DNA of 64,000 nucleotides, from assembly GCF_030435755.1 (NCBI RefSeq), contig NC_080843.1:68798485-68862484 (forward strand). Direction: 5' to 3'. Of the stretch, positions 48,262-64,000 are shown piece by piece. Every line of letters starts with the position of its first letter. Within the stretch, counting starts at the first letter, position 1. Made by a program: the position numbers and the translations under genes. Under the pieces are notes generated by a model, which was not told where the DNA came from, made no database searches, and saw only the letters and a program-made list of their open reading frames with translations. Source of the stretch: Ochotona princeps. Lineage: Eukaryota.

Positions 48262-49333
48262 AATCTTTACATAGTTGATTAGGGTGCAAAGGGTCAAGGG
48301 CTAGAGGAAAGTGGGTAAGACCATTGTTATCACATTCTTTTTTTTTTTTCCCTTTTTGTATCCTGCGGAGAGATAAGGGGAAAAAGCCACACCCAGCCTC
48401 CCAACCATCCCAGGGTCCCCCTCCGAGGGTCCTGCTCAAGTTCAACACTTCTGAATTGCTGCCCATCTCACCAGTCTAAGCATGATGCAATCTCTCCAGA
48501 ATTCCCTGGCTGACATAGTCCATCTTAGAGTCTCCGTTGCCCAGATTTTCACTGCCAACCCTTGGCTGGGATAGTTGATCCATTTATTCTGTCTTCCAGC
48601 CTCTGTTCTGGTACCAGGTGTCCTTTGCAGGTTCTAATATACCATCATACCCTCCATGTACAATTGGCTATGCTGTCCACTGTTTCATTTAAACCACTGA
48701 AGAAGCCCAGCTCTGGACACAAGCATTCCACAATCAGGCCATGGACCCTGCAATTTTCTGCATGGTTTAAAGTTCTGAGTCCACTGGTTCAATTGGGGGA
48801 TCCCCAAAGAAACCTCAATGAGGCGATCCCAGACCTGATTCTTGTGTGTGTTTACCAGTACAGGGACTGGCACAACGTGTTGCCCCGATCAGCTTACATG
48901 CACACTGGTGATTACAGTTGCTGGGTCAGTTCATCTCCATCCCTATCCTCTATGCAAACTAACAGTGTTGCAGCCCAGCCCAGCCCAGCCCAGCCCAGCC
49001 CAGTTCTACCCACCACACACTCGGCCACATAAACCAGTGGGAGCTGTAGCCTAGTCAGAGTGACCCGCAATAACCCCCACCAGGCACACCCCTGCCCTGG
49101 TTCCTATGCTTGCCAACATGTACCGCAGACTGGTCCAGTCTGAGCTATATCCCATCCAGCTCTCATACATGTGAATAGACCTTGAAACCTAGTTTAACCC
49201 AACTAGCCCCAATATCCAGCCCCACTATTCAGCCACTATACCTGCTGGCAGGTGCCACTCTGTCTAGCCCCGTCTGCCCTAGCCCTGGTTCTTGTGCTCA
49301 CCAGTCGGAGTGGCAACCTGAGAGGGAGGTGCC
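48262..49333 (+). repeat. Same unclassified repeat family, copy 4. The 3' end abuts the P2RX5 retrocopy. It contains a (CAGCC)6 run at 48971-49003.
   Basis: tacatagttgattagggtgcaaagggtcaagg… through …ggagtggcaacctgagagggaggtgcc is colinear with 29545-30720 and 39272-40390. Confidence 0.75.
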
Positions 49334-49379
49334 AGTGGCGAGGCTTTTAAAAAATGAATGGAGTTGGGAGCCGTGGCTC

Positions 49380-50350
49380 CCGGTTCCCCTAGGGAGGGCA
49401 GGCGGGCCGCGACTCCCCGTGCCGCACATTAGGGCCCCGGTACGCAGGCCTGGCTGGGGCGGCTCCATGGACTGCAGGGCGCTCTGCCTGTCCCTCCTGG
49501 ACTACAAAACCGAGAAGTACGTGGTGGCCAAGAACAGGAAGGTGGGCTTGCTGTACAGGCTGCTGCAGCTCTGCGTCCTGCTGTACTTGCTCATATGGGT
49601 GTTCCTGGTCAAGAAGGGCTACCAGGATTGGACACCTTGCTGCAGACTGCTGTGGTCACCAAAGTCAAGGGCGTGGTCTACACCAATACCTCGGAGCTCG
49701 GGGTGCGGCTCTGGGATGCCACGGACTATGTCATACCGCCCCAGGGAGAAAATGTCTTCTTCATCATCACCAACCTGATTGTGACCCCCCACCAGCGGCA
49801 GGGCACCTGTGCTGAGGAGTGAAGACTGGCCGCTGCCTGCGAGCAGGGAATTCAACCCAGGGCACCTGTGAGATCTTCACCTGGTGTCCAGTGGAGACCA
49901 AGTCCGTGCCCAGGAAGCCACTGCTGGGGGATGCTGAAGACTTCACTGTTTATATAAAGAACTTCACCCGCTTCCCCAGATTCAACTTCTCCAAGACGAG
50001 CGTGGACACGGACAAGGCGCTGCTGAAATCCTGTCACTTTGGCCCCAACAACCTCTAGTGCCCCATCTTCCATGTGTGCTCTGTGCCCCGCTGGGCGGGG
50101 AGCACCTGTGAGGACATAGCCCTGGAGGGCGGTGTGATCAGCATTCACATTGATTGGAACCATGCTCTGAATGCAACCCTCACTACTCTTTCAGCCGTCT
50201 GGACCACAGCTTTACAAAGTCCATATCCTCAGGGTACAACTTCAGGTTGTAAACTGGGAAGGGGAAGCTCTGCCCCACAGTGGCCTCAGCGACCCAGCTC
50301 CCTGCCTGCTGGACAGCTTTAACCTAAGTGCTAATGAGGTCAAGGATCAA
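49380..50350 (+). pseudogene. P2RX5: P2RX5 (P2X purinoceptor 5) processed pseudogene. Intronless, with a frameshift near 49606. An exon-3-sized block of ~26 codons is missing at 49809/49822. A further block is missing near 50250. The 3' end is decayed.
   Basis: ORF 49182..49778 ([34 protein letters not shown]…[11 protein letters not shown]), ORF 49595..49822 ([63 protein letters not shown]) and ORF 49819..50058 (KTGRCL…GTCEIFTWCP…CHFGP) match human P2X5 in order with no introns. It lies in CENPJ intron 1. Confidence 0.8.
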
Positions 50351-52094
50351 GGTGGTACTCACTCAACAAGTGGGACCAGTTGATGGAGGGGCGACAAGAC
50401 TGTTCTGGGGGCCCTCTGCTTTTTCCAGCTCAGTGGGAAAGAGGAGCTTCCAGGATTCCCTGCACAGAGCGTCATGCTCCGGCTCGGCCTGCCCACCTTG
50501 GGTCTTCCTGACGACCGAGAAATGCCTTTGGGCGCACTGTGGCCGGTGGGAGACTACACTGGGTGCGGTCACTGTGACATCACAGGGCCCCACAGGACGG
50601 ACTGGCCCCTGCTGCTCCCTGCCCCACCCAACTCCTCCTTTCTCATTGGGATCGTGGCCTTCAAAGACAAGGGGGCACCCAGCATTCCTGCACCATCTCA
50701 CGGGAATGGTGTCTCCATGTGTCTGGGAAAGGAGTCCGTTCCGTTCCAAACCACACCCTTCCCCTTGTGGAAACTGCTCCAGGGGACGTCACCTTACCTC
50801 TCTGCCTGCCTGCCCTGAAGCCAGTGCAGCCCTCACAGGGGGGAAGATGGCTAACTCCTTCTGGGACCTGCCCAACACGGACTGTCTTTGCTACTTAAGA
50901 GGAACGTCTTATTGTCTGAGGATTAAGACTTTATAATCACCTGAGATTGTTAATGTCCCTCTTATCACTGTTATCGTTACTGCCCATAAATAATGAGGAT
51001 CTAGTCCTCACTGTACCTTCGTTAGGGCTTTGGGACACAGGCTGACATTTATTCCTGTGCGAAGATGCTGGACACTCCTTTTCATCACCCTAAAGCCACA
51101 CTGATACCTCTGTTATGTTCATTAAGCTCATGTGGGTGAAGGTTCAACATCTTCTTCTTCCTCTTCTCCCATGGTGAACTGTACTCAAGGGAGTGCGTCA
51201 TGGAACTGTAACAGAAATTAATATGTTCATAGGTGCAAATAAAAATAAGTCCTCTTGCATGCACCACAAGAATGGACTCACAACAAAATGACTGACAATC
51301 TCCTACACTGTTGGGAGACACCCCAGTGGCAGCAGGATGGGCTTGTGCTAATTCACAAAAGACACCCATTGTAAGCCTGGAGGGGAGGGAGGGAGACCCC
51401 AGTGCCAGCTAACCTTCATCAAAAAATAGAAAAACTAAAGATGTTCCTCTTAAAAAAAAATGAATGAATGAATGAATTTTTTTGATCTGCTGATTCATTC
51501 CCCAAATGACTGTAGCAGCCAGGATGGGCCCAGACTGAAGCCAGGAGCCTGGAGCTCCATTGGGATCTGCTGGTTGAGTAGCAGGGGACCAAGTACTGGA
51601 GTCTTTCTTTGTTTCTGTCGCAGGTGCATTAGCAGGGAGCTGGATCGGAAGTGGAGCATCACCTTGAGCCAGCAGTCATAGGATGCAGCCCACAGGCACA
51701 TGGCTGTAAATGTTGCTCCTGTGCTAGGGATGCCCGGATTGATGCTCTGCAGCTTTGATGTCTTCTGTGGATTCTATTCTGCTGCAGCCATTAAAATACC
51801 TGTGCTCGGGTGTGCAATAAGTATCTTAAATTGCCTGCAATTAAACTCTTGTGAAAACATTAAGGAAATATTTCAGACAGAGCTATGGAGAGATTGGAGC
51901 TGAGATGGAGTGAGCATGAGTGCTACCATAGGCTGGTGCTTTGCACATGTCTATTGGCTAGGGTCTACCTTGATTCATGTTTCCCACGTAGGTGGTGAGA
52001 AGACAGTTACTGGGGTCGCCCCTGCTGCCTCCTGGGAGTGTGCAGTGGGAAGCTGGGGCAGGAAATCCAGCCCAGACGCTGTGTGTGAGTACTG

Positions 52095-52445
52095 GGTGTC
52101 TTTTTTTTTTTTTTTTTTTAAAGATTTTTTTCATTATTATTGGAAAGCCAGATATACAGAGAGGAGGAGAGACAGAGAGGAAGATCTTCCATCCGATATT
52201 TCACTCCCCAAGTGAGCTGCAACGGGCCGGTGCGCGCCAATCCGATGCCGGGAACCAGGAACCTCTACCCGGTCTCCCACGCGGGTGCAGGGTCCCAAAG
52301 CTTTGGGTCATCCTCGACTGCTTTCCCAGGCCACAAGCAGGGAGCTGGATGGGAAGTGGAGCTGCGGGGATTAGAACCGGCGCTCATATGGGATCCCGGT
52401 GCGTTTAAGGTGAGGACTTTAGCCGCTAGGCCACGCCGCCGGGCC
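52095..52445 (-). mobile_element. SINE (C-repeat), near-consensus
   Basis: Poly-T at 52095-52117 …ggaaagccagatatacagagaggaggagagacagagaggaagatcttccatccgatatttcactccccaag…gccacgccgccgggccc. Confidence 0.95.
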
Positions 52446-53374
52446 CAAGTACTGGGTGTCTTCACCAGCAGGCACCTGCCTGCCCTCCTGAATTCATCTT
52501 GGTGTGTGTTATTGTCCCGCACCTGTTTCCCCCTCAGTCTTCCTCATGTCAGTAAATGACAGTTCTGTTTTTCCAGTGGGTCAGCAGGGAAATGTTGGAG
52601 AATGAAGTGTGGGAGGTGAGAGAGGAGGGACATTTGGTGTTACAGGCTGATCATAAGAGATTCAAAATTGCTTTTAGGAACAGCGTGGAAGAATACCATA
52701 TCAGAACCGTACACTATCACAGAAATAATTGGATGTTGGAGTTTTTATACTCTAAGAGTATTAAGAGCGGGGGACTTCTGTGGTTTCTGGTGTAGGATTA
52801 CTTACCTGGATTAATTCTGCAGAAGTCTAGGTAGGGAGTCGTCGTGACGCTGGGTCCCAGAGGACCGTGGCACTGATGGGATTCTCCTGCAGGTGAGCTG
52901 GTCCTGCTCCGCCCTTGGGAGCTGCAGAGCCCAGGCCGTCTCCTGCAGCCAGCCTTTAGTGTCACGGGCAAGGACTTCTGTCCACCTGGTCTTGCTTGCA
53001 GCCCTCCTCCCTGACGCTGCTGTTGTCCCCCGAGCGCTAGTTACTGTTCTACGTACTGTATCATTTTTGTGTTTTCCCCATTGCTAGATTTTAGCGCCTA
53101 TAACAATATCTGGCACGGAGTAAGAACCCCACCGATGGTTGTTGAGTAATATCTGACGTGGTACAGGGAGGCGCTTATCTTCCCCTGACGTCTGACTGAA
53201 GAGCACTCACTCCTCTTGATGGAGTTCCTCGGAAGATTTTGAAGTCTGAGAACCCAGACACAGTAGCTGTCCTGTGGCAGGAGCCGGTGTAATTTTATTG
53301 TTGAGTGTTGAATGAACACTGAACACAGACAGCTTCTTACAGTGCTATATTTAGTTTTCAAGCCAATCTTTTTT

Positions 53375-55105: not shown

Positions 55106-55365
55106 CCATAGAAGGAATTTAAAATTTTTGATCTGCTGTCTTTGGACATCTTGAACGTCAAAATAAACCCTTAATGCTTAGTGCTTGGTTGATTTGCTGA
55201 TTCAAGGCTTTTCTATATGAAATACTGATGAAATTTTCACACGAGATTGAAGTTTGTGTTAGTTTTGGGTAGAATATGTAGTAGTTGTAACAGTTTTTGT
55301 GTCTGTCTTTGTTTCTAGGTGTTGGAAATCGACCTCTCTAGCTTTTACATTATTTATTGTAATAG

Positions 55366-55821
55366 CATCACCGCACTGAAATGTTCCTGACACCGGCCTC
55401 CGAGTTAAGCAGTGGGCAGAACTTCCTAAGCCAGTGGATGACCAATCCTTCCCGGGCTGGGGTCATATTAAACCGTGGCTTTCCTGTGTTGGAAGCTGAT
55501 GAAGAGAAGCGAACAAGTGAAGACATCTGTGCCAGTTTTCCTGTTAAAGCCACGCGACTCTCAGACAGCTTCAGCTTTGTCGGCGAAGGAGAGCCCCTTT
55601 ACGGAGAGCAGCAGCTGGACTCGAGCGGCACTCGCAGACCGCAGGCAGACACGCCCGAAGCCCGCACCGTCTTCCCCTCAATCAAGAAGGGACCGCAAGG
55701 GGTGGTTTGTCAGGATGTCTGCAGATCCCAGGAGGATGGCAAAAGTGACTTTATTTCAGCCCTTGGGAGTGAATTCAGAGAAGTGGCTTATAAAGACCCA
55801 CTTTTGAAAAAGCTGGAACAG
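55366..55821 (+). CDS. CENPJ: CENPJ ATG exon (ATG at 55381): [44 protein letters not shown]…[12 protein letters not shown]
   Basis: ORF 55381..55830. The N-terminus matches my recollection of human CENPJ/CPAP ([45 protein letters not shown]…). Acceptor ttattgtaatag|C. Donor GAACAG|GTGCAG, ending in phase 0. Confidence 0.75.
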
Positions 55822-58058: not shown

Positions 58059-58409
58059 AGCGGTTGGAAGGGGAGTGTACTTTTCCAGGCACATGCTATT
58101 GAGATAACTGTGCCTGGTGCCACGTGGAGGGCTGTAGGTTGCCAGCTGCTGTGAAGCCTGCTGTGGCAGCTGCAGCTCTGTCCTCCACGTTCTGGTTGCG
58201 TGGGAAGTATCCTGTAAGTGTGCTCTCACTTGAAATTATGTGAAGTTCACCATGGAACCTGAAAATTTCATGATTTGGTGAAGCCTCTTTTCCTACTATG
58301 AAAAATATACTTGGAGAAGTCTGTGCAGGGTGGGAGTGGGCATGGGGGTGGAATGCTAGGCAGATGTTGTAGTAAAATGTTAACTTTTTTGGTGTTCTTT
58401 AATTGTAAG

Positions 58410-58691
58410 CTTTACTGCCTGATGAGCAGAACCAGAAGTGCGGTTCGCCAGGACATCCAGTGGCCAGAGAGAAGACCGTGCCCTTTTTACCATCTTACCT
58501 CTTCTCGAACCAAGCCCAGGACAACGCTCACGCTTGCAGCATTTTACCTGATGACCACATCAGCTCGTGTACCCAGCAGGATGCCTCCGCCTCCCGAAGC
58601 GCTTCTCCGGGTTGGTTCTATGAGGCGCAGGGTCCAGACGCGCTCGTGAAAAGCGACGCAGGGGAGGAAGGGCAGAACCGTGCGGCAGGTG
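58410..58691 (+). CDS. CENPJ: CENPJ exon: (A)LLPDEQNQKCGSPGHPVAREKTVPFLPSYLFSNQAQDNAHACSILPDDHISSCTQQDASASRSASPGWFYEAQGPDALVKSDAGEEGQNRAAG(G)
   Basis: This is the only acceptor (ctttaattgtaag|CT) that restores phase 1→ORF after the in-frame stop at 58406. Donor GTG|GTGAGT. It resembles human LSLLPDDQSQKHRSPG…, a weaker recollection. The donor could instead be 3 bp upstream (CAG|GTGGTG) without changing the phase. Confidence 0.55.
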
Positions 58692-59149
58692 GTGAGTCCC
58701 GGTGCTGAACTCACAGGGTTACCAGGTGGCCTCAGATAGGAGAAGCCCTTTGTGACATTTTTCCCCCATCTTGTAATCGTGATATGTCACGTGCCTCATC
58801 GCTGCTGAGTTGGAATTGAGTTCAAAGCTATGCTAGGATTTGTCTTGCTAGAAACACCGTGGGCTCAGGCGCCTTGGGATGCCCGTATCTCATACCGGGT
58901 TGCCAGTTTGCTTGCTGGCTGCTCTGTCTGCAGTACGGCTTCCTGCTAAAGCACCCGTGATGGCACGTCTTCTGTGCTGGACACTACAAAGCTCTTCCTC
59001 GCTCCTGGCTTCCCGCTGGCCCAGTCCAACCCTGGGTATTAAAACGCTGAGCAGTGAACTTGCAGATTAAAGATCTCTGTTTCTGTTTTCTTCTTCCCTT
59101 TCTCTGTCACTACCTTTCAAATAAATAGATAACATTTCTCTTTTTAAGG

Positions 59150-59325: not shown

Positions 59326-59617
59326 TGAAACCCCATATAAGCCAAAAAAACCCCAAAAAGACTCTTTAAAACTTTCTTACTCTAGAAAAGCCTTTACTTT
59401 TCTCCCCCATGGCGTTATCTTTTGAAGAATATCAAGTGTCTTTATTGAGTTTTATGGTTTTTATGTATTAAAGAAATGCTTTAGCATTCTAAAATTGTTG
59501 GCATACATGATTATTAATTACATTTATAGTTGTAGCTTAGTAAGTTGTGAAGTTCCTATGCTTCAAGCCTTTCATCTGCCTTTGTTGGACTGCGTTGTTT
59601 CTTAATTTGTATCTTAG

Positions 59618-59717
59618 GAGAAGGTGTTTTATCAATGACGGAACAGATTCTGGGACAGAGTGACATGACTTTTAAGAAAATCGATGATTCCTCCGAAGTC
59701 TTGAATATCGAAGAAAG
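59618..59717 (+). CDS. CENPJ: CENPJ exon: (G)EGVLSMTEQILGQSDMTFKKIDDSSEVLNIEE(R)
   Basis: Acceptor tgtatcttag|GAG. Donor GAAAG|GTATAAGT. Open in the required phase (1→2). No protein-level confirmation from memory. Confidence 0.5.
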
Positions 59718-60462
59718 GTATAAGTGTTGAAAGGAGTAAGAGACGGAACAATTCAATGTCATGGTTCATGTTGTTATTGAGCTCTTTGGAAGAGTTATAC
59801 TCTTGTTTCCAATTGAAGTGCTTTTGAGTGTAGGTTGAAGATAACCCTGTCACATGTGGTAACAGGAGGAGGTTGGGAGGTACTAGTTAAAGAAGCTTTG
59901 GCATTGTTCTGGAGGAACTGAGCCAAGGTTTTTGCACTTCACAGACAGCTGGGTAAGTGTGACCTCTCAAGTAGCAAACTTCTGTTTAATGGGGTCTCAC
60001 ATGTGGTGTCTCTTACAGATTATAATTGTACAATCAAAGAGCTGAAAATGGTGAAGGGGATTTTATCTTTTAGATAGATTATTATATATTTGAAATATTT
60101 TCATGTATATTACGGTATGGGCAAAATGACTTGCGGCTCTGTTTACATGAATGATCTTTCTTACTTTGAAAGAGACCGAATCAATGGGCTGTTTTTGAAA
60201 GAAGTTTTAAAGTTATACGGTGAATGTGTTACTTCAGAAGTGAATCTGTAGTCCCTGGATGGAATCCACACGGGCCCAGTCATGTACAGAAGGTTGAATA
60301 CCTTTGTGTTTGTTAGGGGTGGTGGTGATTATTGCTTTTATTGGATTCTCAAAGGGGGGGGATCTTCAACTTCTATCGTTGTTGAAGTTGTGTCATCAGG
60401 CGTGTTAACTAAAATAGTCACAGACTGGGGTGTGTGTGCTAAATAACTTTGTTTTTGACTAG

Positions 60463-60695: not shown

Positions 60696-62349
60696 GAAGC
60701 GGAAGGACCAGGGCTAATCAAAGCAAAGCCCAAACAACCATTCTTAAAACGAGGAGAAGGTCTAGCTAGATTTTCTAATGCTAAATCTAAGGTTCAGAGA
60801 GGGAAAGAAAGCAGACCAGTGTCTGGCCAGAGCGCTGCGGAAGACCAGCCCGTGTTTCAAATGGAGAGACCGCAGTTCCAGCGGAAAACCGCTGTTAGGA
60901 ATAAAGACCTGGGTGCCGAGAGCCCTGCTGTCAAAAGGCTCAGTAAAGTTCGAAGCAGGAGTGCGGCTGTCACACTCAGTCAGAAGCTACACGTGCCCAA
61001 GAGTAATAATAGAAAAAGTCTCTCTCCGTCGGGATTGAAAATACAGGCAGGGAAGAAATGGGACGGGCAGCCGAGAGACCACAGCAGATTGGACAGAAAG
61101 GTGGAGCTGCCTAACAGCAAGGAAGATGTACGTGAGTGTGCAGACCCTGCGGATCCTGGCTGCAGAGTGCGGGCTAAGGCACCAGGACAAGACAGACGGC
61201 CCCTCTCACCAGGGCAGCTCGCCTCTGCGGCTGCCAGAGCACCCATGAGCGAGACTGTGAAAGCGTTGGAATCTTCTCTGGACGTTTCTCTTCAGAAGAA
61301 AATGGAGACTTGGGAACGAGAGAAGGAAAAGGAAAATTTGGAACTAGATGAGTTTTTGTTTCTGGAGCAAGCTGCTGACGAAATATCATTTTCTAGTAAT
61401 TCCTCATTCGTGCTGAAGATCTTAGCAAGGGATCAACAGGCGTGCCAAGGTCACCGGCTGTCTTCCACTCCCATGAAGGCTGTGCAGCCAGAGAGGGCAC
61501 ATCCACGGGGCGCTGATGGTCAGGGTGACCACAGGGAGGGTCCCAGCCATGCTGCCCGTGAAACCAGAAGTGAGTGTGACGTGGCACCCCACCCCCGGGG
61601 CCCAGCGTCCGCACCTGAGGGCCCGAGGGAATGGTCGTGTAACATCCGGAGGAAAGCTTGCCAGAAAAACGACTTGAGCAGTTCTGAAAACCGAGCCCCA
61701 TGGGAAGCAAGCGATGAGGTCGATGTCACCGACAGTGATGATGGCGCGGACTCCGAGGAGCAGCTTGATGTGACCGTGAGACCGTTGCCTGAGGAGGCGG
61801 GCAGGAGTTTGAGCAGCATGGAGGAGAGCCCACAAGTCTGCGATGGCATGGGGCCTTCCAAGGACGCTCAGACTCAACAGGAGAAGAGAGATGTGGAACT
61901 GGATTTGTCTGCTAAAGATTGTAGCACTGATGGCTGCATCATGGCAGAGAGCATGAGAAACCTGGGCTCTGAGACTTCCCGAAGACCCTCATCTCCAAAT
62001 ATGAGTACAATTGACTTTGATGATGAAAGAACCTGGACTGACCTCGAAGAGAATTTGTGTCAACACGACGCTGTTCTTGAGGATGAAGCTGTTTATGGGA
62101 CCCCCCAGAAACACTCCCTGAATAGAAGTGATGTGTTTGTCCTGGACAAAACATTAAAAAGAAAGGTAGCACCGGTCAAGAGGGGAGAAGACTCGAGCAA
62201 GGCAGGCAGGAGCCGAAGCCCTCCTCCTGCGTCGGAGCTCATGATGAAATTCTTCCCGTCTTTGAAGCCAAGACCAAGACCAAGACCAAAAGCAGATTCG
62301 CCTTTGGACAATGGACCCAAGTTAAACACGAGTCCAGACCAGCTACCTG
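60696..62349 (+). CDS. CENPJ: CENPJ giant internal exon (1654 nt): [32 protein letters not shown]…[29 protein letters not shown](G)
   Basis: ORF 60819..62366 extends upstream in frame to acceptor ttttcttttag|GAA at 60696. Donor CTG|GTGAGT at 62349/62350. Disordered, S/P/E-rich composition. Its size and position are consistent with the large exon 7 of CENPJ. Confidence 0.7.
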
Positions 62350-64000
62350 GTGAGTCAGCATTATAAACTACACATTGGAGTGTTAAAAAAGTCTACCTTT
62401 GTTTTATCACCGTGCTCTTAAGGTGGTTAAAATCCTGTCAGTGTTGCTCAGCGAATGGAGTTAATGATTGATTTGTAGGACCTTGATTTGTTTCGTTGGT
62501 CTAAAGCATGTAAGAGTCACTAGTATGAGGTTCAGCTGCATCATGCCTTCAGGTTCTTCAGGCTTGTGCTTTAGCCTTCCCGAGACTTGAAACTAGTTTA
62601 TGATCAAATGAAATAATATTTAAGTTGCTTTCACAGCAAGGGAGGACCCACATAATGGTGTGTATTCCCGAAGGTGAGTCTTTTAGCGACTGTTAAGACA
62701 TTGATCTTCGTGCACTTGTTACATGAGCTTGTGAGATGAGCCCCTGATGGTTTAGAGCAGCAGTCCAGTGGTCCCTGGGTCTGTGGGAGGTGTGGTTTGG
62801 AGCTCCACCTGCACAAATGGAATCTTGGAGAATGCCAGACCCCTTCTGTTGACTGTGTGTTTCTGGGCTATGTGCCTTTCTCTTAGAGGACTCTTGTCAT
62901 GGCTTCTCTTCGGCATATCCGAATTGCTGTAGCGCTCGTCCTGCACTTTGGGGGTCATTCTTAAGTAGCATGGGTGTCACTTGAACACAAATAGTGCAGA
63001 ACTGTGGCGTCTGATCTGGTAACTGAGATGAGTACTAAGTGACCTGATGGTGTCACTTAGCGTATGGAATGATAATGTCCTGGGTGGGACAGCGAGATTT
63101 CATCATTCTACCCAGAGTGCTGTGCGAGTTGACATTTGTGAATGATTTTGGGAATTGTCCACATAATGTTTTCAGATTCTGGTTGACTGGGCAGTAGAAA
63201 CCATGGAACGTGAAACCTTTGAGAGCAGCAGGGACTGCCGGAAAGTGTCCATCCCTTCCTGGACCTGGTCCTGGCTCCCTTTCCTGGCAGTACCACACAC
63301 TCTCAGGATCCGTGCTGGAGGTGGTTGTCACGCTCAGGCACCTCCTCCTCTGGATTCAGTGACTGTTGGACCCAATTGCTGTGGCGGAGTTCTCAAACTT
63401 ATCTCGAAACGCCTCCTGTTGCATCCTAACCTCATAGCTTGAGTACTGGACGGAGCATGGATGGAAGTTGTGGTGTCAGGAATTTAAAATACTGTTCTGC
63501 TTTTAAAGGAATACTTTTGTGGAAAGCTTGGAAGTTGAGATAAAAAGGGAATAGAAACAAACGTGTAAGAACTTTCAAACTGCTGTGTTGTTTTGGGATG
63601 GTCCCTTCCAGCGATTTAACTTTCCTAACAGAGTCATATCCTTTTAGCCTTGTGATACGGATCAGGTTTGTTTTCCCCAAAGGTACAGTTAATAAAAGCC
63701 CTTTTTCAATTGATGGCAGTAAGCTTGACTGTTTTGTTTCTTTTTCTTTAAAAAAATAGTACATATACTTAAGGATCTTCGTTTACATTTCTTTGATTAA
63801 CAGTGGAAGGTAACTGTTGATTTGAATATCAAATTATCTACTCAGATCTCTTTGTGGATTAGTTATTCATGCTCTTAAGCTATTTACTGCTATTTTAAAC
63901 ATTGATTTCAGTGATTTCTTTGCATACGTAGTGGTTTAATTTGTTTTGGTGTATGCAGTGTTGAGTCTTCAATTCTTTTGCGACAGCGTGATTGATTGTT

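Follow-up and report, generated by a model that had tools for sequence, protein, structure and literature searches.

The purinoceptor gene P2RX5 is known for variable splicing of its small exons. The human isoforms P2X5A and P2X5B lack exon 10 and/or exon 3, and rat isoforms lacking exon 3, exons 2/3, exons 2/3/4, or exon 6 have been described (PMC10247652, bioRxiv 10.1101/2025.01.10.632374). A human read-through locus, P2RX5-TAX1BP3, is also named in the literature. Its transcript is regarded as a candidate for nonsense-mediated mRNA decay in the NCBI Gene entry. Transcripts of mammalian genes may be copied back into the genome by LINE-1, and the hallmarks of such processed pseudogenes are listed in PMC5470649. 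Here a copy of this kind is characterized within a 64-kb window (64,000 nucleotides of the Ochotona princeps contig NC_080843.1, to which all positions refer unless a parent locus is named). The stretch 49361-51454 on the + strand is, with a probability of roughly 0.85, a LINE-1-mediated processed pseudogene of P2RX5 with a length of 2.09 kb.

Compared with LINE-1 processed pseudogenes of mammalian genes (PMC5470649), the copy has had its introns removed just as exactly and begins in the region where transcription of the parent starts; it also has a target-site duplication at a TTTT/AA-type site, a putative poly(A) remnant, an unlinked position, and neutral decay with frameshifts and stops. 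There is no difference in kind; the peculiarity of the copy is that its template appears to have been an unproductive isoform rather than the canonical mRNA, and that its poly(A) is nearly gone. Compared with the known P2RX5 isoforms, it is a product of the same gene, shares with them a tendency to omit small exons of the ectodomain, and has lost the second transmembrane segment as in human P2X5 without exon 10 (PMC10247652, bioRxiv 10.1101/2025.01.10.632374). However, in the retrocopy exon 4 alone is skipped, which is 76 nt long and shifts the frame, while the known losses of exon 3, with 72 nt, and of exon 10, with 66 nt, leave the reading frame intact. No isoform lacking just exon 4 is given in PMC10247652 and bioRxiv 10.1101/2025.01.10.632374; the isoforms of the literature are known as transcripts, whereas this one is known from a genomic fossil. 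A literature search found no description of a P2RX5 processed pseudogene.

Exon content of the copy

The P2RX5 loci of hare (L001) and rabbit (L002) served as parent references and that of Dipodomys (L003) as the outgroup. In both hare and rabbit the gene has an integrin-like gene on one side and EMC6/TAX1BP3 on the other, and includes 13 coding exons over about 12 kb. The hare coding exons, placed with the protein P0001, are 128, 151, 72, 76, 97, 81, 139, 134, 94, 66, 83, 165, and 70 nt long, all with GT-AG borders. The gene models of hare (L001 21693-21762), rabbit (L002), and Dipodomys (L003 19423-19491) end in a short 13th coding exon located 1-2 kb past exon 12.

Three-frame translation of 48.8-51.4 kb revealed an intron-free P2X5-like sequence on the + strand, which begins with an ATG at 49467 and, with three changes of frame, can be read as far as …SSGYNFR at 50245. 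Stitched together, this translation of 260 residues matched the Pfam profile PF00864 (P2X_receptor) with E=1.3e-86, and its closest proteins in a protein database search were the P2X purinoceptor 5 of Lepus europaeus (P0001) and of Oryctolagus cuniculus; together the profile match and the closest relatives place it in the P2X family and in the P2X5 orthologue group. The open reading frame (ORF) with two transmembrane segments is not intact, since the frame is broken four times and exons 9-13, the second transmembrane segment included, are gone.

In BLASTN comparison with L001 and L002 the sequence fell into seven collinear blocks of 74-91% identity, which abut in the window, whereas in the gene 0.2-5 kb separates one from the next. 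Aligned base by base with the spliced hare exons, the copy has six junctions (E1/E2, E2/E3, E3/E5, E5/E6, E6/E7, and E7/E8) that coincide with hare exon borders. Alignment to the rabbit locus had been proposed in the initial annotation; carried out for both rabbit and hare, it defined the following exon content and breakpoints.

49361-49466, + strand: P2RX5 5′ untranslated region (5′UTR), 106 nt, aligned upstream of the ATG in L001 and L002
49467-49594, + strand: exon 1, coding part, with the ATG at 49467-49469 (spliced alignment to hare exons)
49595-49744, + strand: exon 2, 90.7% identical to hare, with a 1-nt deletion (frameshift) between 49628 and 49629
49745-49816, + strand: exon 3, 72 nt, 90.3% identity, gapless, ending in TGTGCTGAG
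49817-49913, + strand: exon 5, joined straight onto exon 3 (spliced alignment)
49914-49994, + strand: exon 6, 90.1% identity, gapless
49995-50127, + strand: exon 7, 133 nt, with a TAC>TAG stop at 50056-50058 (spliced alignment)
50128-50245, + strand: exon 8, with a 16-nt deletion between 50164 and 50165, ending at the exon 8 donor (…AACTTCAG) (spliced alignment)

The deletion in exon 2 is the actual position of the 5′ frameshift that had earlier been placed at about 49606. Exon 7 of the copy is 6 nt shorter than the 139 nt of hare and rabbit, the difference lying near 50005. Dipodomys exon 7 also has 133 nt, as in the retrocopy, and for this reason the difference may be an insertion in the leporid parent and not a deletion in the copy.

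Ends of the insertion

The boundaries of the inserted unit were defined by a direct-repeat search and by reading of the terminal sequence.

49349-49360, + strand: 5′ target-site duplication AAAAAATGAATG, 12 nt, preceded by TTTT (direct-repeat search)
51452-51454, + strand: residual poly(A), three A's ahead of the A6 of the target-site duplication (sequence read)
51455-51466, + strand: 3′ target-site duplication AAAAAATGAATG (direct-repeat search)

The duplication is perfect, and AAAAAATGAATG occurs exactly twice in the window against 0.03 copies expected by chance. Its 5′ flank reads …GGCTTTT/AAAAAATGAATG, so the insertion lies at TTTT/AAAAAA, a site of LINE-1 endonuclease type; the consensus of this endonuclease on the primed strand is TTTT/AA. 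Homology to the rabbit 5′UTR starts at 49361, the first base after the target-site duplication and 106 nt upstream of the ATG, and no homology is found beyond it. If the boundaries 49361-51454 hold, the unoccupied site is predicted to read GGCTTTTAAAAAATGAATGAATGAATG.

Thus, the assignment as a P2RX5 retrocopy made in the initial annotation is confirmed by the Pfam and protein matches, by the removal of six introns at exact borders, and by the 12-nt target-site duplication at TTTT/AAAA, while the extent given there (49334-50420) needs revision on both sides. The true end at 51454 means that about half of the element had been cut off and that the inserted unit is approximately twice as long as delimited. 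The P2RX5-derived part starts not at 49334 but at 49361, after the duplication. Its start had also been described as the very point where the fourth copy of a local repeat family stops; the repeat similarity does end at 49333, but the retrocopy begins 27 nt further on, and 15 unassigned bases lie between the repeat and the 5′ target-site duplication.

Taken together, intron loss, the target-site duplication, and the LINE-1 site are all present, while of a poly(A) tail just three A's are left beyond the A6 of the duplication, with only variant hexamers upstream. The copy also lies away from its parent and lacks the parental promoter, being near CENPJ while the parents are near EMC6 and TAX1BP3. 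It is advisable to mask 49349-51466 as a P2RX5 processed pseudogene, from which neither a P2X gene nor CENPJ exons should be predicted. In lagomorph phylogeny the copy could serve as a presence/absence marker.

Skipping of exon 4

Exons 3 and 5 are joined as TGTGCTGAG/GAGTGAAGAC between 49816 and 49817 (over a longer stretch, TGTGCTGAG/GAGTGAAG), with zero offset on both sides and with exon 4 missing to the base. This exon has 76 nt in hare, rabbit, and Dipodomys. A search of the entire 64-kb window found neither exon 4 nor exons 9-13. The gap of about 26 residues at CAEE/KTGRCL, which had been supposed to correspond to one small exon, is therefore exon 4 with both borders exact, and the reservation that the block might be present but missed by eye does not apply.

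Because of its length of 76 nt, the skip of exon 4 shifts the frame and creates a stop codon: the join reads GAG TGA, the TGA being at 49820-49822, two codons past the junction. It follows that the source mRNA was already unproductive and that the copy was dead on arrival.

The tail from downstream of P2RX5

After exon 8 (50245/50246) exons 9-13 are all absent and a tail of about 1.2 kb stands in their place. The "second exon-sized gap" previously noted near 50250 is really this replacement of all five exons by sequence from downstream of the gene. The tail is composed as follows.

50246-50391, + strand: block A, corresponding to hare L001 22303-22414 and rabbit L002 22905-23014, about 0.55 kb past the P2RX5 stop codon (BLASTN, nhmmer E=4e-6 to 5e-5, pairwise alignments)
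50392-50462, + strand: stretch at the A/B junction, aligning weakly to either parent segment, so that the junction is not placeable
50463-50894, + strand: block B, P2RX5-EMC6 intergenic sequence, hare 24676-25097 and rabbit 25988-26449 (nhmmer E=1.2e-23 for hare, 1.5e-22 for rabbit)
50895-51312, + strand: block of about 0.4-0.45 kb with no parental counterpart
51313-51451, + strand: 3′ terminal block with AATAGA and ACTAAA, rabbit 26398-26571 and hare 25090-25238 (pairwise alignment, z=8.1 against shuffles for hare)

Block A, block B, and the 3′ terminal block keep the order and orientation that they have in the region 0.55-3.5 kb past the stop codon, in hare as in rabbit, and so would have been carried on a single primary transcript extending beyond the usual 3′ end. 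The join of exon 8 to block A falls exactly at the exon 8 donor, which argues that it was made by splicing. According to these data, the exon 8-to-tail junction was probably formed by splicing and not by later deletion, and the tail by read-through. The retrocopy shares with the human P2RX5-TAX1BP3 read-through the transcription past the P2RX5 3′ end toward the EMC6/TAX1BP3 region, but differs in that it has no detected TAX1BP3 sequence and ends at the homologue of rabbit L002 ~26571, upstream of EMC6.

Several other sources of the tail were considered and rejected. Retention of intron 8 was dismissed as intron 8 of hare and rabbit does not match the tail, and a TAX1BP3 or EMC6 origin of its 3′ part was dismissed as 50895-51312 has no match in L001 or L002. 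Later SINE insertions do not explain the 2.3-kb gap between A and B in the parents, only about 0.55 kb of which is SINE-like.

Some observations weigh against the reading of the whole element as one spliced, read-through retrocopy. The block 50895-51312 found no match anywhere in L001 or L002 by BLASTN, nhmmer, or shuffle-calibrated local alignment. The parental site at which the tail starts, CCTCTCTCTCGG/GTAAGA, consists in hare and rabbit of a polypyrimidine tract followed by CGG and not CAG, and for this reason the acceptor of the exon 8-to-tail junction is putative. The A/B junction is not placeable and lacks a convincing GT-AG pair. The poly(A) tail is down to three extra A's, and within 30 nt of the end there is no canonical AATAAA but just the variants AATAGA (51425-51430) and ACTAAA (51434-51439), 12-27 nt upstream; both were reportedly recognised as poly(A)-signal variants by Beaudoing and colleagues in 2000.

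The two splice-signal observations, namely the CGG in place of CAG in the extant parents and the A/B junction without clear signals, would also suit an origin from a normal full-length P2RX5 mRNA, with exon 4 and exons 9-13 deleted later inside the pseudogene, the more so as this pseudogene carries real post-insertion indels of 1, 16, and perhaps 6 nt. Nevertheless, such an origin is unlikely. The exon 4 gap has an exact exon border on either side and the second gap has one at its 5′ side, which would be very improbable for random deletions; no normal mRNA would extend over 0.55-3.5 kb beyond its stop codon without a very long 3′UTR; and even then a further deletion, of about 1.6 kb of non-repeat DNA lying between blocks A and B, would be needed.

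Decay and age

The damage acquired after insertion includes the 1-nt deletion between 49628 and 49629, the 16-nt deletion between 50164 and 50165, and the TAC>TAG stop at 50056-50058. Over 778 aligned coding sites 94 differences were unique to the retrocopy, while 15 were found only in rabbit and 7 only in hare. Since there is no excess of states shared with either parent, the retrocopy is an outgroup to rabbit and hare, and the insertion is therefore older than the rabbit-hare split. With Dipodomys used for polarisation, the lineage of the retrocopy had 17, 17, and 24 substitutions at the first, second, and third codon positions. The deficit at the first and second positions that purifying selection on a functional retrogene leaves is thus not seen; the substitutions are spread evenly over codon positions, as expected of neutral decay.

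At third positions 14 changes fall on the parental stem, while each lineage has gathered about 7 since rabbit and hare separated. Both this stem-to-tip ratio and the retrocopy branch give the insertion an age of about three times that of the rabbit-hare divergence, although the counts are small. The split of rabbit and hare is dated at about 12 million years, and if this date holds the retrocopy would be approximately 30-40 (about 35) million years old.

A functional role, either as a retrogene for a truncated P2X5-like peptide or as an exon or poly(A) site used by CENPJ transcripts, is quite improbable. The copy is in sense orientation and probably intronic in an expressed gene, about 54 codons can still be read from an ATG, and an AATAAA is present at 51240-51245. 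However, the frame is broken by the two deletions of 1 and 16 nt, the skip of exon 4 and the TGA that it creates, and the TAG stop; the codon positions have changed evenly; no Pfam domain was detected in the tail ORFs, and no Rfam family in 47.0-53.5 kb.

Proposed origin

The template would have been a polyadenylated but aberrant transcript of P2RX5, made in the germline of an ancestor early in the leporid lineage and begun at the usual promoter, some 106 nt ahead of the ATG. Exons 1-3 and 5-8 would have been spliced correctly, with the 76-nt exon 4 skipped and a premature TGA as the consequence, and the exon 8 donor then joined to sequence past the last coding exon instead of to exon 9, so that about 1.2 kb of P2RX5-EMC6 intergenic sequence was carried along. 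The transcript probably ended at a weak poly(A) site, and would represent a read-through, unproductive isoform without the second transmembrane segment. A LINE-1 endonuclease nick at TTTT/AAAAAA, followed by reverse transcription in place, would account for the 12-nt target-site duplication. After insertion the copy, non-coding from the start, would have decayed neutrally with no function of its own.

On this account the copy records that P2RX5 made an exon-4-skipped read-through transcript in the early leporid germline. Beyond annotation its importance is little: as a processed pseudogene it is ordinary, and its one use is as a fossil of the transcript from which it was copied.

The proposal that just 49361-50245 is P2RX5 retrocopy, the 1.2-kb tail being unrelated host or other DNA and the 12-nt repeat a coincidence, would agree with the approximately 0.45 kb of tail without parental match and with the minimal poly(A) remnant. 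It is highly improbable, because the three tail blocks are collinear with the region past P2RX5 in two species (nhmmer E down to 1e-23), the exact 12-mer occurs at the two ends only, against 0.03 expected in the window, and after 50245 neither an A-rich tract nor a second copy of the 5′ flank is present. That the stretch is P2RX5 itself, which the initial annotation had named as a finding that would overturn the retrocopy, or a segmental duplicate of the locus at the DNA level, is suggested by the sequence similarity alone and is practically out of the question: the real hare and rabbit loci, with 13 coding exons over about 12 kb, sit between the integrin-like gene and EMC6/TAX1BP3 and bear introns, while here every intron is absent and the neighbour is CENPJ.

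Genomic context

The retrocopy is located 3.85 kb upstream of the ATG-containing exon of CENPJ and on the same strand, and the sense orientation reported for it earlier is correct. The exons of CENPJ were placed by tblastn with a human CENPJ sequence, and the identity of the gene was confirmed by protein database matches, among which there was no CENPJ of a lagomorph.

44000-44800, + strand: CpG island, the only one within 20 kb upstream; its promoter-like motif ACTACAATTCCC occupies 44398-44409, and CAG/GTAAGG at 44598/44599 resembles a splice donor
55319-55806, + strand: CENPJ ATG-containing exon, with the ATG at 55381 and a strong acceptor, tttgtttctag, ending at 55318
55381-55806, 58409-58750, 59617-59718, and 60699-62360, + strand: CENPJ coding exons (tblastn and database matches)

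By its sequence, the CpG island at 44.0-44.8 kb is the likely CENPJ promoter with non-coding exon 1, and the insertion would then be in CENPJ intron 1. This location, asserted in the initial annotation, is plausible, with a CpG island and donor upstream and the acceptor of the ATG exon downstream, and is best called likely. A second motif like ACTACAATTCCC is found in the opposite orientation near 44340 (GGAGTTGTAGTTTGCG), and the part of the CpG island at 44300-44620 may be a bidirectional promoter.

It is a rather doubtful, speculative idea that the source isoform, with exon 8 spliced to P2RX5-EMC6 intergenic exons in the manner of P2RX5-TAX1BP3, was recurrent and is maybe still expressed, and/or that the copy gives CENPJ cryptic splice or poly(A) sites.

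Neighbouring repeats and other features of the window

Upstream, the insertion site is bordered by a member of an old, approximately 1-kb repeat family.

48272-49333, + strand: fourth copy of the family, ending 15 nt before the 5′ target-site duplication (self-BLAST)

The other copies found by self-BLAST are at 15393-16291 (- strand), 29560-30736 (+ strand), and 39593-40204 (+ strand), with 66-71% identity, and no coding content is evident in the family. A 1.5-kb inverted duplication (14865-16347 and 39247-40734, 93.6% identical) is much younger than the repeat family contained inside it.

Downstream, a truncated SINE fragment at 51481-51660 starts 15 nt past the 3′ target-site duplication of the retrocopy, with a (TGAA)n/T-rich stretch between them. 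It belongs to the same family as a full-length SINE of about 345 nt at 52103-52447 (region 52088-52462), which is lagomorph C-repeat-like, lies on the minus strand with a poly-T head at 52101-52120, and has a perfect target-site duplication of 15 nt, AGTACTGGGTGTCTT, on its two sides. The window contains at least 15 members of the family, 78-92% identical.

Another CpG island at 33300-35000 (GC up to 0.70, CpG observed/expected up to 0.96) includes two ORFs of 219 and 207 aa on the + strand, neither with a Pfam match. Just upstream of the insertion site there are two microsatellites, (CAGCC)6.6 at 48971-49003 and (GA)29 at 47390-47447.

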